64,000 nt of DNA from Candidatus Aenigmatarchaeota archaeon. Its GTDB lineage: Archaea > Aenigmatarchaeota > Aenigmatarchaeia > CG10238-14 > SCSR01. Shown here piece by piece: positions 18,592-23,395 of this stretch. The notes beneath the pieces were generated by a model, which made no database searches, was not told where the DNA came from, and worked only from the letters and a program-made list of their open reading frames with translations. The translations under genes were made by a program, and so were the position numbers. Position 1 is the first letter of the stretch; each line of letters opens with the position of its first letter. Where the stretch lies: NCBI GenBank assembly GCA_038998335.1, contig JAVZHQ010000001.1, positions 192,001-256,000 of the forward strand, read 5' to 3'.

Positions 18592-19851
18592 ATGAAAGAG
18601 AAACCTACAGTAATAGCCCCTGTAAAAGGAAAAGGCACAAGACTTTATCCTCTTACTTTGGATGACTCTAAATCTTTAGTAGGAATAGCTAACCAGCCAA
18701 CTTTAGAAAGAATATTTGAAAACTTAGCTCTTTATGGTTGCAGAAATTATTGGATAATTGGGGAGTATGAGCTTTACTTTTACTTTAGGAGAGGTGAAAG
18801 CTTTTCAAAAAGACTTGACTTAAAACCTGAAGCTATTTTTAACTACTCTACTGAAGATGATTTTGGTAATGCTGACGGGACAAGAAGACTTTTAGAAAAA
18901 GAGGATATAGAAGGAAATGTGCTTATAATAGGAGGAGATAACTTAACTGACATAAACGTTGATCAAATGCTTAAGTTTCATGAGAATAACGATTCAGATT
19001 TTACTGTAGCACTGGCAGAAGTTAAAGATGTTACAAAGTATGGTATAGCTAAGCTAGACGGTAATAGAATTTGTGAGTTTTTAGAAAAACCTAAGCCCGA
19101 AGAAGCTCCTTCTAATCTAGGAAGTATGTTTTGTTATCTAGGCAAAGCAAAAGTTCTTAAAGAATTTCTAGAAAAGAATAAGGACCTTACAGATTTTGGT
19201 TCTCAAGTAATACCAAAAATGGTAAAGGAGTGTAGAGTTTATGGCTATGTTCACAAAGGTTATTGGAAGGATATAGGAAATCCAGAAACTTTACTCCAAG
19301 CTTCTATAGATGTTTTGAACGGTAAAGTTGGAAAAATTGGAGAAAGGATTCATCCTTCAAGCAAAAATAAAATAGGGAAAAATGTGGAAATGGATAATGT
19401 GCTTATAGGGGCAAATGTAAGAGTTGGTAATAACGTCAAGCTAAAAAATGTTTGTATAGAAGATAACTGTATAATAGAAGATGGAGCTGAGATAGAAGAT
19501 TCTGTGCTTTATTTTGCAGCAAGAGTTGGTGAGAAAACTAAAGTAAAGAAATCTATTGTTGGAAGGTTTGCTTACACAGGAAAAAGAAGCGAAATAGGAG
19601 GTTATAATATAGATAAAGTTTCTGTAGTAGGAAATAATGTAAAAATGGGTGATGAATGGATAATATGGGAAGGTGAGCTTTTAGCTACATATTCTCCGCA
19701 AAATATGAGGAAGATTAAAAAAGCAACTTTAAACAACCAAGACTTGTATAAAATTGTTAACGTGGATAATGACATTATATTCTTTGTTAACAGAAAAACT
19801 CTTTACGAAGATTATAAAGGAATGCCTCCTCCTGTTTTCAAAAGGGTTTAG
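18592..19851 (+). CDS. sugar-phosphate nucleotidyltransferase with hexapeptide (LbH) repeats
   Basis: 'GKGTRLYPLT...K', 'GGDNL', 'FLEKP', 'YWKDIG', C-terminal hexapeptide repeats. Confidence 0.9.
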   Translation: MKEKPTVIAPVKGKGTRLYPLTLDDSKSLVGIANQPTLERIFENLALYGCRNYWIIGEYELYFYFRRGESFSKRLDLKPEAIFNYSTEDDFGNADGTRRLLEKEDIEGNVLIIGGDNLTDINVDQMLKFHENNDSDFTVALAEVKDVTKYGIAKLDGNRICEFLEKPKPEEAPSNLGSMFCYLGKAKVLKEFLEKNKDLTDFGSQVIPKMVKECRVYGYVHKGYWKDIGNPETLLQASIDVLNGKVGKIGERIHPSSKNKIGKNVEMDNVLIGANVRVGNNVKLKNVCIEDNCIIEDGAEIEDSVLYFAARVGEKTKVKKSIVGRFAYTGKRSEIGGYNIDKVSVVGNNVKMGDEWIIWEGELLATYSPQNMRKIKKATLNNQDLYKIVNVDNDIIFFVNRKTLYEDYKGMPPPVFKRV

Positions 19852-21068
19852 CTTAGTTTATACCTTAAGAAAGCTCCTATTCCTCCCAATTCTTTAAACT
19901 GAGCACCTTCGCTGCTTTCTGTCGAGATAAACTCAACTTTACTTCCTAAGTTTTTTGCTTTTTCACTTAAACTTTCAACTAATTCCTCTACGCTTTCGAC
20001 ATTCATAACCTGATTACATTTCTCACAGTATTGATTTTCAGCTTTATCTTTCGGCAAATCTTTTTCCTGTGTCAAATTACACTTATTGCATTTAAGTTTA
20101 ACATGAACAAAATCAAAACCTTCTGAAATCAGTAAAGTATCAACAGCTCCTGCTTCCAAAGCTTTTATAGTTTCCTTAAAACCGTAAGTAACATTTCCTC
20201 CCTTTTGTAGTTCAGAGAAAAATTTATTCATTATTTCCTTTTCCTTCATTATAGAAGCCTTTTCAAGCAAGTCTTCTGACCTGTTAACAAGTTCTCTTAG
20301 TCCATATTCGCCTGTATAGCTTGTATCTTTTATTCCCAAAATTTTTTTCTGAATTTCATGGTGTAAGTAATTTCCTTGGGCAAAAGTTTCTTTTGTCGGT
20401 CCTGGACCACCAATCAAAACTCCTTTCAACTCAGGCTCTTGCAAAAAAAAGTTTGAGGCAATTTCTCCTACTCTAGTAAAAAACTCATTCAAGGCGTCTT
20501 CTCTAATCCTATCATACCTACGTTGTGACATCCCACCTTTTACGCTCTTGGAAGGTACAGTAGATTCCAATTTTTTGAATTCTTCAACTAATTTGCCTTT
20601 AAGTAAGCCAATGTTAGCTTCGTTCGCGTCAAGAACTATTAAACCATAAACTTCCTTTTCTCTCAACATTTCTTTCAAAGGGTTAAGAACAAAAACTTGA
20701 TCGCAACGATAAATTTTTGTTGAAAGTTTTTCTGGAGGCTCTAAACTCCAAATTCTTACATCTGAAATTCCAGGGTCAGAAGAAACATTTCCACAAAAAA
20801 CCACCAAACCATTTTCAGGAGTTGTTCTAAAAAGTCTTAAGTGTTGAATTATTTTTTCTAAAGCACTCATCACGTTTTTTCTTACAGTTTTATCCTTTAC
20901 GTTTTGCGCTAAGCTATACTCTTCTCTTAACATGTTGACAACTTCTTGCAAGTTTGAACCAGAAGGAATATAAACGCTAACCAATTCCGTATGTCTACCT
21001 TTTATTTTTTCCAATTCTTTTACCATCTTCTTTAGTTTTAACAGTTTCTCTTCTTCCATTTTACTCAC
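19848..21068 (-). CDS. prf1: peptide chain release factor aRF1 (GGQ replaced by GGM)
   Basis: 'GRHTELVSVYIP', 'PENGLVVFCG', 'YRCDQVF', zinc ribbon, 'LGGIGAFLRY'. Confidence 0.95.
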   Translation of the reverse strand: MSKMEEEKLLKLKKMVKELEKIKGRHTELVSVYIPSGSNLQEVVNMLREEYSLAQNVKDKTVRKNVMSALEKIIQHLRLFRTTPENGLVVFCGNVSSDPGISDVRIWSLEPPEKLSTKIYRCDQVFVLNPLKEMLREKEVYGLIVLDANEANIGLLKGKLVEEFKKLESTVPSKSVKGGMSQRRYDRIREDALNEFFTRVGEIASNFFLQEPELKGVLIGGPGPTKETFAQGNYLHHEIQKKILGIKDTSYTGEYGLRELVNRSEDLLEKASIMKEKEIMNKFFSELQKGGNVTYGFKETIKALEAGAVDTLLISEGFDFVHVKLKCNKCNLTQEKDLPKDKAENQYCEKCNQVMNVESVEELVESLSEKAKNLGSKVEFISTESSEGAQFKELGGIGAFLRYKLS

Positions 21069-21073
21069 GAAAG

Positions 21074-23395
21074 TTATAGTATGTTGTGCATAACTTTTAA
21101 ATCTTTCTCAAAAACTTTTAACTCTTCTGGAATCTCTATTTTTATCGCTTCTTTTAGTGAAACTCCTTTTTTCTTTTTTTCTTCCCAAACTCTTGAGTTA
21201 AACTCTACCAAGCTTTTAGTTAGTTTTGTCATATCTTTCTTCCATTCTGGTTTTGGAAAAGTCTCTAAGTGAATACTTTTTTTAGAATAGAGTTTTTTCC
21301 AAATGTATTCTGTAATAAAAGGAGAAATAGGTGCAAGAAGAAGTAGAATTGATTTTAAACAAGTGTGTAAAGTAAACCATGCAGCTTTCTTTTCCTCTTC
21401 AGAAAATCCTTTTCCATAAGCTCTTGACTTAACCATTTCAATGTAATGCGAGGCGAATAAATTCCAAATAAATTCTCTTATTTTATTCGAAGGTACGAAA
21501 AAGTTAAAATCTTCGTACCCTTTAAGACATTCTTCTATTAGGCTACTAAGCTCTGCTAAAATCCACTCATCTGTTTTAGTTAGTTTTGCTTTTTTTGGTT
21601 CTGGAAAAGAAGAAACAAATCTTGCGACGTTCCAAAGTTTTGTTAAGAATTTGGAGTTAGCAAATATTCTTTGCTCAGAGCATCTGAAATCATAACCTAA
21701 GCTTGCTTCTTGGGCTCCCCAAAACCTAAAAGCATCACTTCCATACTTTTCAAGAATAGGCAAGGGGTCTATAACATTACCTTTACTTTTGCTCATTTTT
21801 TCTCCTTTCTCGTCAACACCATAACCAGAAATCCAAACATGCTCAAAAGGTATTTTTTTAGTTATTTGGTAACATCTTAGCAAAGTATAATAAAGCCAAG
21901 TCCTTACTATATCTTTTCCTTGTGGTCTTATCGCATTTGGATAAGTCTTATTGAAAAATTCTTTATCTTCCAAAAATTTTGAGATGAATAATGGGGAAAT
22001 GCTAGAATCAAACCATGTATCAAAAGTTCTTTCTTCACCGATAAACTCTTTTGCCTTACAAAAAGAGCATTTTGAAAAAGGTGGTTTTTCCTTCCAAGGT
22101 TTATAGTATTTTCCAGGTTTTGGAACATTAGCTTTACCACATTTTTTACAGTACCAAATTGGAATTTCAGTTCCGTAAAACCTTCTTCTTGAAATAGGCC
22201 AGTCTGTTGTTATTGAGTTAATCCAATTAAGCAATATCATCTTATGTTCTTCAGGATGGAATTTAATTTTTTCTATTTCTTTTTTCAAATCTTCTATGAA
22301 AGGAATTTGTTTTAAGTAATATTCTTTCATAGGAATTATTTCTATGGGAGTTTTGCTTCTTTCGCATAAAGGAGTTCGATGCCATATATCTTCTATTTTC
22401 TTTACTATACCCATTTTTTGTAGATCTTCTATTATTCTTTTTCTTGCATCTTCAATTTTTAGACCAGCATAATTTCCTGCGTTTTTTGTCATTTTTCCAT
22501 TTTCATCTATAGCTATTATTTCCTTGAGCTTAAACTGTCTGAAAATTCTCACATCACTTTGATCACCATAACTACAAACCATAGCAGCTCCTGTTCCAAA
22601 CTCAGGTTTTGCTTCTTTACAAGGAATTATAGGTACTTCCCTTTCATAGATTGGAATTATCGCATGCATGTTATGTAAGCTTTTATACCTTTCGTCTTCT
22701 GGATGAACTATTACTGCTTGGCAAGAACAAAGGAATTCTGGTCTTGTTGTGGCAATGGTTAAATCTTTGCCAGTTTCCTTTACTTTAAAATTTATGTAAA
22801 CAAGTTTTGTAGGAAGCTCTTCATACTCTATTTCAGCATCTGCTATGGTTGTTTTGCAATCTATACAATAATTGTTAGGTCTAGTAGCTTCGTAGATTAA
22901 ACCTTTGTTCCAAAGCCAAATAAAAGTTGTTTGAGTAAGTTTTCTGTATTCCTCACTATCTGTACGATAATAATCGTCAAAATCTCCGCTTATTCCTACC
23001 ATTTTCATTATTTTTATGAAAATCTTTTCAACATCATCCAAAGAATGTTTGCATAGTTCTATAAATTTCTCTCTTTTCACTTCATGCAATCTTATATTGA
23101 ATTTTTTTTCTGTGTAAAGTTCAACAGGAATTCCGTTTCTGTCTATTCCTATAGGGAAATAAACTTCAAAACCAAGCATTCTTGCAGTTCTTGATATCAT
23201 ATCTATTTGTGAATAATGGACTACTGCACCAATATGCCAAGGTAAACCAGAAGGATATGGTGGAGGGGTATCTATCGTAAAAATTTTTTTCTTTGTCTTA
23301 GGATTAAAACTAAAAATTTTATCCTTTGACCACTCGCTTAAGATTTTTTCCTCAAATTTTATGTCCCATCTTTTTTCTTTTAATTTCGGTTTCAC
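21074..23395 (-). CDS. valS: valyl-tRNA synthetase
   Basis: 'DTPPPYPSG', HIGH-like 'HIGA', 'ATTRPE', 'DWPISRRR', 'DTWFDSS', KMSKS. Confidence 0.93.
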   Translation of the reverse strand: MKPKLKEKRWDIKFEEKILSEWSKDKIFSFNPKTKKKIFTIDTPPPYPSGLPWHIGAVVHYSQIDMISRTARMLGFEVYFPIGIDRNGIPVELYTEKKFNIRLHEVKREKFIELCKHSLDDVEKIFIKIMKMVGISGDFDDYYRTDSEEYRKLTQTTFIWLWNKGLIYEATRPNNYCIDCKTTIADAEIEYEELPTKLVYINFKVKETGKDLTIATTRPEFLCSCQAVIVHPEDERYKSLHNMHAIIPIYEREVPIIPCKEAKPEFGTGAAMVCSYGDQSDVRIFRQFKLKEIIAIDENGKMTKNAGNYAGLKIEDARKRIIEDLQKMGIVKKIEDIWHRTPLCERSKTPIEIIPMKEYYLKQIPFIEDLKKEIEKIKFHPEEHKMILLNWINSITTDWPISRRRFYGTEIPIWYCKKCGKANVPKPGKYYKPWKEKPPFSKCSFCKAKEFIGEERTFDTWFDSSISPLFISKFLEDKEFFNKTYPNAIRPQGKDIVRTWLYYTLLRCYQITKKIPFEHVWISGYGVDEKGEKMSKSKGNVIDPLPILEKYGSDAFRFWGAQEASLGYDFRCSEQRIFANSKFLTKLWNVARFVSSFPEPKKAKLTKTDEWILAELSSLIEECLKGYEDFNFFVPSNKIREFIWNLFASHYIEMVKSRAYGKGFSEEEKKAAWFTLHTCLKSILLLLAPISPFITEYIWKKLYSKKSIHLETFPKPEWKKDMTKLTKSLVEFNSRVWEEKKKKGVSLKEAIKIEIPEELKVFEKDLKVMHNIL

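Follow-up and report, generated by a model that had tools for sequence, protein, structure and literature searches.

Replacement of the GGQ glutamine in the release factor aRF1 of Aenigmatarchaeota lineages without a detectable Mtq2 methyltransferase

The aRF1 gene and its GGM loop

The window analysed here is a stretch of 64,000 nucleotides from a Candidatus Aenigmatarchaeota archaeon (assembly GCA_038998335.1, contig JAVZHQ010000001.1, positions 192,001 to 256,000 of the forward strand), and all positions below are counted from its first letter. It carries on the minus strand a gene coding for the archaeal class I release factor aRF1, in which the glutamine of the Gly-Gly-Gln (GGQ) motif is replaced by a methionine. 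The source genome, called G000 (1,009,365 bases in 9 contigs, 90.4% complete), is that of a small hot-spring DPANN archaeon, and the nearest NCBI homologues are labelled Aenigmatarchaeota. The replacement of the Gln is genuine; it is fixed throughout a lineage, purifying selection acts on it, and it concerns the only protein of the release-factor type found in this genome.

GGQ is the textbook motif conserved across the class I release factors of all domains of life, and methylation of its Gln has been described from each of the three. At 20529-20537 the plus strand reads catcccacc and the minus strand GGT GGG ATG; GGTGGGATGTCA encodes G-G-M-S and the translation of the gene includes TVPSKSVKGGMSQRRYD. 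An earlier note, made from the letters of this stretch, had given these codons and the loop PSKSVK-GGM-SQRRY, and both were confirmed in the sequence and in the translation; by the genetic code, going from Gln (CAA/CAG) to Met (ATG) indeed takes two base changes. When the protein is aligned by HMMER, without gaps, M180 falls on the Gln of the GGQ motif of aRF1 (4af1) and of eRF1 (4crn). The coordinates of the gene and of its motifs are collected in Table 1. As the nearest database protein is 403 aa long (100% identity), translation probably begins at the ATG of codon 4 (21059; 403 aa).

The protein was matched by the aRF1 equivalog model TIGR03676 with 506.6 bits (cut-off 234.7), residues 10-404 being aligned on model positions 3-402, and by the Pfam domains eRF1_1, eRF1_2 and eRF1_3 with 70, 137.8 and 101.9 bits, all above cut-off. 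The statement of the earlier note that the rest of the protein looks intact is in agreement with these scores. The N domain has kept its YxCxxxF motif, a name which appears in excerpts of PMC4381064. The stop-codon-recognition motif is read as NVKD, and NIKS, NVKS, NVKN and NVKD all occur among the relatives irrespective of their GGQ status, NVKD being also present in a GGQ relative. The zinc-ribbon insert of the C domain has an aligned counterpart in the halobacterial aRF1 4af1, and weak Zn_ribbon_8 matches were obtained in two relatives. By every sequence criterion the protein is thus classified as an aRF1 orthologue, carrying GGM at 178-180 where a canonical GGQ-type class I release factor has Gly-Gly-Gln at the tip of its M domain; it is to be regarded as a variant and not as a canonical member.

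Other identities have been considered. Pelota/Dom34 was rejected, since TIGR00111 gave 86.9 bits (cut-off 177.65) over the M and C domains only. A hibernation factor of the Balon/Rv2629 type was discarded with 23.4, 20.1 and 29.9 bits for NF052287, NF052288 and NF052289 (cut-offs 330, 480 and 320). A link to the bacterial baeRF family 10 was likewise abandoned, PF18854 giving 41, 51 and 62 bits in non-GGQ aRF1s and 37-56 bits in GGQ ones from this and other phyla. The model NF041024 of acVLRF1 scored 27.2 bits for a cut-off of 125, although the loop GGMSQ does fit the GGxSQ pattern, and PF18859 cross-matched with 35.6 bits, as it does in GGQ aRF1s too. An altered genetic code as the cause of NVKD was dropped, since the three stop codons are all used and NVKD also occurs in a GGQ relative.

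The GGM codons do not result from an error. Contigs from the runs of two other studies (X2 and X3) span 20528-21068 and are identical at 20529-20537, so that the CAA/CAG which the earlier note had proposed to look for in reads was not seen in them. All five further sample genomes belonging to this genus have GGM. The Gly codons vary synonymously (GGT/GGA/GGC and GGG/GGA) in four same-genus genomes and in G012 and G160, and G-G-M-S is fixed. The dN/dS ratio of aRF1 was 0.03-0.09 against four genus relatives (G001-G004) and 0.03-0.18 against six relatives, with dS near saturation; the gene is under strong purifying selection. With an intact open reading frame, these ratios, identical codons in the contigs of two other studies and GGM in 117 of the 120 closest proteins, a sequencing or assembly error, or a pseudogene, is refuted. 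In two metatranscriptome runs (X7, X8), of which about 3% each was read, no read fell on the locus, which speaks neither for nor against expression.

The X2/X3 contigs also revealed an allele of this gene with an intein, 8 bases immediately behind the GGM codons giving way to an insert of 1235 bases (window 20519-20528). In many relatives, of the form GGM|C...HN|SQ or GGW|C..., the intein is preceded by Met or Trp.

Table 1. Features of the aRF1 gene in the window, and relatives with an intein
Feature	Positions	Strand	Remarks
aRF1 gene	19848..21068	-	Uninterrupted open reading frame, 406 aa from GTG start
NVKD	20892..20903	-	Local form of the NIKS stop-codon-recognition motif; from translation
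YxCxxxF motif (YRCDQVF)	20691..20711	-	N domain, intact; from translation
GGM tripeptide	20529..20537	-	G178 G179 M180 (numbered from GTG), at the universal GGQ position; GGT GGG ATG
Gln182	20523..20525	-	GGMSQ, +2 from Met180; candidate shifted catalytic Gln
Tyr185	20514..20516	-	GGMSQRRY; column separating non-GGQ from GGQ factors
CxxC...CxxC zinc-ribbon insert	20013..20090	-	C domain, CNKC 327-330 and CEKC 348-351; from translation
N-M-C architecture			Pfam matches: eRF1_1 residues 13-135, eRF1_2 141-269, eRF1_3 273-405
Intein-bearing relatives			G004-G006, G008, G009, G019-G021, G026, G030, G031, G038, G040, G111, G199; loci L182-L194, L200, L201

Distribution of the replacement, of Mtq2 and of other release factors

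Among the best 120 of 3523 database homologues, 117 have GGM (in 4 of them the Met is immediately followed by an intein), 2 GGF, 1 GGW and none GGQ. The phylum was sampled with 201 Aenigmatarchaeota genomes including G000, all of them incomplete metagenome-assembled genomes, and an aRF1 match at E <=1e-30 was obtained in 198. The residue after the two glycines (GGX) was read in 168 of them: 100 are non-GGQ (GGW 58, GGM 38, GGY 2, GGF 1 and GGA 1, the last in G071) and 68 are GGQ, W, M, F or Y accounting for 99 of the 100 replacements. Eight more relatives from outside the sample all have GGM. By family, GGM predominates in that of the window, GGW in f4, f5, f10, f14, f15, f20, f22 and f31, and GGQ is found alone in twenty others. 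As a control, the aRF1s of other archaeal phyla were examined (80 loci, each at most 50% identical, from lineages which include Micrarchaeota, Iainarchaeota, Hadarchaeota, Methanobacteriales, Thermoplasmata, Thermococci, Asgard and Thermoproteota) and GGQ was found in 80 of 80. The near-invariance of GGQ stated in the earlier note is therefore borne out by these phyla and breaks down in Aenigmatarchaeota; the proposal that GGM is a natural variant, to be followed across DPANN, proved right in that the variant is lineage-wide.

Representatives of clusters at 50% identity could be read in 149 of 150 cases, and 27 were non-GGQ (GGW 12, GGM 8, GGF 3, GGE 2, GGA 1, GGS 1). Six distant non-GGQ aRF1s among these (P0169, P0213, P0241, P0207, P0159 and P0268) are about 40% identical to the factors of the phylum and reach 310-464 bits with TIGR03676; non-GGQ aRF1s may thus exist in other, unplaced lineages. 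Four aRF1 orthologues from metagenome lineages (P0247, P0259, P0204, P0268) have GGE, GGS (before an intein) or GGA, with 361-396 bits on TIGR03676 for those scanned, and the NCBI entry for P0259 carries the name of a bacterium.

A second aRF1 was searched for in G000 with the protein itself, TIGR03676 and the eRF1_2 model PF03464, and none was found; as the genome is 90.4% complete, this absence is not proven. Within the same limit of completeness, neither the bacterial RF-1 domain (PF00472) nor bVLRF1 (PF18826) was detected, and the canonical GGQ paralogue that the earlier note had thought of did not appear. The sole further match is a Pelota-like frame of 224 aa (G000:C1:648670-649323, plus strand) which covers only positions 1-130 and 249-351 of TIGR00111 and has no central eRF1_2-type domain; relatives of families f4 and f7 have a full-length Pelota of 342-365 aa. 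In G000 the open reading frames of at least 250 aa end with TAA in 227 cases, TGA in 97 and TAG in 93. Since all three stop codons are used, the sole factor has to act at each of them.

Two GGM genomes of the window's family encode a second, small eRF1_2 protein (244-257 aa), L359 (G021:C1:12862-13179) and L360 (G018:C40:1891-2265), with the loops KGGSSARRF and KGGYSQARF and without NIKS and C domain. No eRF1_2 counterpart of them was found in G000. Judged from these features, they may be archaeal rescue factors similar to VLRF1.

The enzyme which methylates the GGQ motif was then searched for in the same 201 genomes with TIGR00537 (Mtq2/HemK2, cut-off 87 bits), and the result was joined to the GGX table. 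None of the 100 non-GGQ genomes yielded a true Mtq2, with a motif of the NPPY type where it was inspected, whereas 61 of 68 GGQ genomes did. In 53 of the latter the match was at E <=1e-26, and 8 more had lower-scoring, split or truncated matches, seven of which were inspected and showed an N-P-P-Y type motif followed by L-P. Most of the best matches of non-GGQ genomes lie at E 1e-4 to 1e-11 and are generic methyltransferases. In the mixed family f20, an NPPY-type Mtq2 is present in 5 of 5 GGQ genomes and in 0 of 18 GGW genomes. In G000, no Mtq2 or PrmC was found over cut-off, the best TIGR00537 match reaching 27 bits versus 87; the best HemK-like matches are a protein-isoaspartate methyltransferase (PIMT), an unclassified NPPF methyltransferase, a UbiE-like enzyme and Trm5b, all of them well short of the cut-offs for Mtq2 and PrmC. 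Trm112 is present, and its retention is expected if it serves other methyltransferases. Both searches suggested in the earlier note have therefore an answer: the PrmC-type enzyme was found neither in G000 nor in the 100 non-GGQ genomes, and Trm112 is still there. According to excerpts of PMC6144793, the Haloferax Mtq2 methylates the GGQ of aRF1 and Mtq2 orthologues occur in all archaea; the non-GGQ Aenigmatarchaeota clade is an apparent exception to the latter statement. In bacteria, methylation makes the release factors faster and more accurate (excerpts of PMC8131318).

A few genomes of both GGX kinds contain members of a further methyltransferase family, some 230 aa long, which has NPPF, NRPF or NLPF where Mtq2 has NPPY (L205, L207, L209, L218, L219 and L206 in G203, G043, G176, G201, G144 and G123, respectively). 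They score 60-85 bits on the Mtq2 model, and in the GGQ genome G123 such a protein stands alongside a true Mtq2.

A FastTree phylogeny was built from 156 full-length aRF1s and 8 outgroups; it is a gene tree which includes the protein bearing the trait itself. All GGQ families form one clade (support 99), and the non-GGQ sequences fall into two groups whose joining nodes are weakly supported. The tree requires 3-4 changes between Q and non-Q, and 8 changes among all six states.

Possible roles of residue 180 and of its surroundings

On balance, the sequences incline us towards a working omnipotent class I release factor in which a bulky hydrophobic residue has replaced the Gln (N5-methyl-Gln) and for which Mtq2 would be dispensable. 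The wider claim, that a whole archaeal clade terminates every protein without the catalytic Gln or its methylation, the encoded Trp, Met, Phe or Tyr doing the job of N5-methyl-Gln, has in our opinion an even chance of being correct. In such a mechanism, the two glycines would still bring the loop into the peptidyl-transferase centre, and hydrolysis would still need the rRNA together with the backbone of residue 180. In GGQ, the catalytic contact is made by the backbone NH of the Gln and not by its side chain; with Gln substitutions, hydrolysis is kept in vitro and discrimination against non-water nucleophiles is lost. The role of the side chain of residue 180 should then be packing, which N5-methylation would improve in canonical factors and which an encoded hydrophobic side chain could give directly, without modification. 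The methyltransferase would have become dispensable and been lost, or its loss would have selected for the replacement, either order being conceivable.

The main internal argument for hydrophobic packing is that all but one of the 100 replacements are bulky hydrophobic. The earlier note had suggested that Met might mimic methyl-Gln; this idea is too narrow because Trp (the commonest), Phe, Tyr and once Ala occupy the position in sister lineages. The common property at position 180 would then be a bulky hydrophobic side chain and not isostery with methyl-Gln.

Besides the GGX residue, only one aRF1 column separates the two groups at 70% or more, namely the aromatic residue at +5, which is Tyr in 80 of 93 non-GGQ factors and Phe in 53 of 63 GGQ factors. 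The typical change of the loop is from GGQ-S-[AS]-x-R-F to GG[WM]-S-Q-x-R-Y. A 23S rRNA match was obtained in 140 genomes, 39 of which were compared, over a part of the molecule only, which we take to correspond to E. coli 2430-2790. With 25 non-GGQ genomes set against 14 of the GGQ lineages, domain V has no column by which they could be told apart at 80%. The contexts of A2451, U2506, U2585 and A2602 (E. coli numbering) are invariant in both groups, so that the peptidyl-transferase residues, whose inspection the earlier note had advised, are unchanged with respect to GGQ relatives. The positions presumed to be E. coli 2452/2453 are U/G in nearly all 39 sequences, and the presumed equivalent of 2503 is C, U or A and varies in both groups.

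The 23S gene of G000 (C1:412614-415875, L223) has 3262 bases for a model of 2987 positions, and its domain V contains about 40 extra bases that most relatives lack. In many relatives, the 23S BLAST matches break at the same query positions (~345 and 522-536), a pattern that points to introns or insertions close to the peptidyl-transferase region.

Several observations weigh against a working factor in which a hydrophobic residue stands in for methyl-Gln. Yeast and human eRF1 and E. coli RF2 mutated at the Gln are said to be non-functional or toxic in vivo, and Gln substitutions in RF1/RF2 and eRF1, as studied by Shaw and Green in 2007, Seit-Nebi et al. in 2001 and Mora et al. in 2003, were reportedly impaired or lethal in vivo. 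The number of independent GGQ-Mtq2 pairs is 1 on well-supported branches and 3 on all branches; with only 1-3 pairs a statistical claim on the link is impossible, and shared ancestry could yield much of the pattern. Most of the 33 genomes in which GGX was not read have intein-split or unlisted matches. Seven of the 68 GGQ genomes (G069, G145, G156, G158, G165, G187 and G189; 83-91% complete) have no detectable Mtq2. Conversely, six to eight genomes, non-GGQ or without a GGX reading, have middling matches to a different methyltransferase family of the NPPF type; the six inspected in non-GGQ genomes are ~230-aa NPPF/NRPF/NLPF proteins, proteins of 325-349 aa and an RsmC-like one. In the non-GGQ genome G039 the match even reaches 87.5 bits versus 87, but the protein has 349 aa and no NPPY motif. 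Finally, the +2 residue is Gln in 83 of 93 non-GGQ factors, compared with 5 of 63 GGQ factors within the phylum and 36 of 80 outside it.

This enrichment fits a register shift, in which the catalytic Gln would have moved two residues downstream (GGQ-S-x to GG-x-S-Q), Gln182 acting unmethylated and Met180 being a spacer. We consider it rather unlikely, though it is the strongest of the alternatives and has several points in its favour. The +2 Gln changes less on the tree in non-GGQ factors (7 changes in 93 rows) than in GGQ ones (13 in 63), a single substitution could make GGxSQ from the GGQSQ which is common elsewhere, and the small second eRF1_2 proteins of two relatives have GGYSQ and GGSSA loops. 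Moreover, loops of the form GGxSQ, or GxuQ in which a small residue precedes the Gln, are described by Burroughs and Aravind for VLRF1-type branches of the aeRF1 superfamily, GGxSQ being given for aVLRF-1 and acVLRF-1 (excerpts of PMC6514570). Such a shift does not account for the 10 of 93 non-GGQ factors without the +2 Gln (GGWSAN, GGWSAS, GGWSSN, GGMSAG, GGMSAR), which arose about 7 times on the tree; because of them, this Gln is dispensable in several surviving genera. Position 180 is restricted to four residues nearly throughout, unlike a spacer, the alignment is gapless, without the loop-lengthening insertion described for VLRF-1, and the acVLRF1 model stays at 27 bits.

The Gln side chain could also be dispensable on these ribosomes, the replacement being then a near-neutral drift in a fast-evolving reduced genome and the co-loss of Mtq2 a matter of ancestry and general gene loss. 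The small number of independent events, the seven GGQ genomes also lacking Mtq2, the lineage with GGA (G071) and the fact that residue 180 has kept switching between W, M, F, Y and A (8 changes of state on the tree) are compatible with this explanation. It is nevertheless improbable, since polar, charged or small residues almost never occur among the replacements, the split in f20 is clean, and GGQ is kept in every aRF1 examined outside the phylum, including the DPANN Micrarchaeota and Iainarchaeota. Far less credible still is an aRF1 which no longer hydrolyses peptidyl-tRNA and only reads stops, or acts in the A site in the manner of Pelota or Balon, release being carried out by an unrecognised factor. 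That GGQ is regarded as essential speaks for it, but no other eRF1_2 domain, bacterial release factor or bVLRF1 was found in G000, and the TIGR03676 score is as high as that of canonical factors, those for Pelota and the hibernation families lying far below their cut-offs. In addition, strong purifying selection has kept YxCxxxF, the NIKS-like motif and the two glycines of the loop, and the PF18854 cross-matches are generic, being of 37-56 bits in GGQ and 41-62 bits in non-GGQ aRF1s.

If the replacement by a hydrophobic residue is correct, these lineages would be a natural experiment in which the essential contribution of the side chain is hydrophobic packing and not chemistry, and release-factor methylation could become genetically obsolete. 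About 100 species-level genomes in which the Gln is replaced, Mtq2 lost and the peptidyl-transferase centre unchanged offer a direct handle on an old question, namely what the Gln side chain and its methyl group contribute to release. The combination of GG[WMFY]S with the absence of Mtq2 is a marker for a deep split inside Aenigmatarchaeota, and it calls for caution in automated annotation and in motif filters that discard release factors without GGQ.

Comparison with known systems, and neighbouring genes

The protein resembles canonical aRF1/eRF1 (4af1, 3agk/3vmf, 1dt9, 4crn) by its three domains and a full-length collinear alignment (292 bits to 4af1), by YxCxxxF, a NIKS-like motif, the two loop glycines and the zinc-ribbon insert of the C domain, and as the single omnipotent factor of a genome using all three stops. 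It differs by Met in the place of the GGQ Gln (W, F, Y or A in relatives) and by NVKD in that of NIKS. With the Mtq2(HemK2)-Trm112 system and the bacterial PrmC system (excerpts of PMC6144793 and PMC8131318), the phylum shares the typical NPPY Mtq2 of its GGQ members and Trm112 in G000, whereas the search gave no Mtq2 for G000, nor for a single one of the 100 non-GGQ genomes. VLRF1-type proteins (Vms1/ANKZF1, aVLRF-1, acVLRF-1; excerpts of PMC6514570) share the GG-x-S-Q pattern of the loop, but these are rescue factors without the stop-reading N domain and with a longer loop, whereas a full aRF1 orthologue without loop insertion is present here. Balon and other bacterial hibernation factors have the eRF1 fold in common with it; they lack the stop-codon motifs and coexist with normal release factors, in contrast to the only release factor found here. 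In laboratory GGQ mutants the Gln position is also substituted with the glycines intact, but these are engineered, whereas the present substitution is natural, fixed and conserved in about 100 species-level genomes. Termination complexes trapped with eRF1(AAQ) are available as PDB 6hcf and 5lzv. No description of a natural aRF1/eRF1 without the Gln, or of archaea without Mtq2, was found in the full-text literature, subscription journals and supplements being outside the scope of the search.

In the window, the aRF1 gene is located 6 bases downstream of a frame of 773 aa (21074-23395, minus strand), in which a class I aminoacyl-tRNA synthetase may be recognised, by eye only. At its 3' end it shares 4 bases with a convergent frame of 419 aa (18592-19851, plus strand), which, again by eye only, resembles a sugar-phosphate nucleotidyltransferase.

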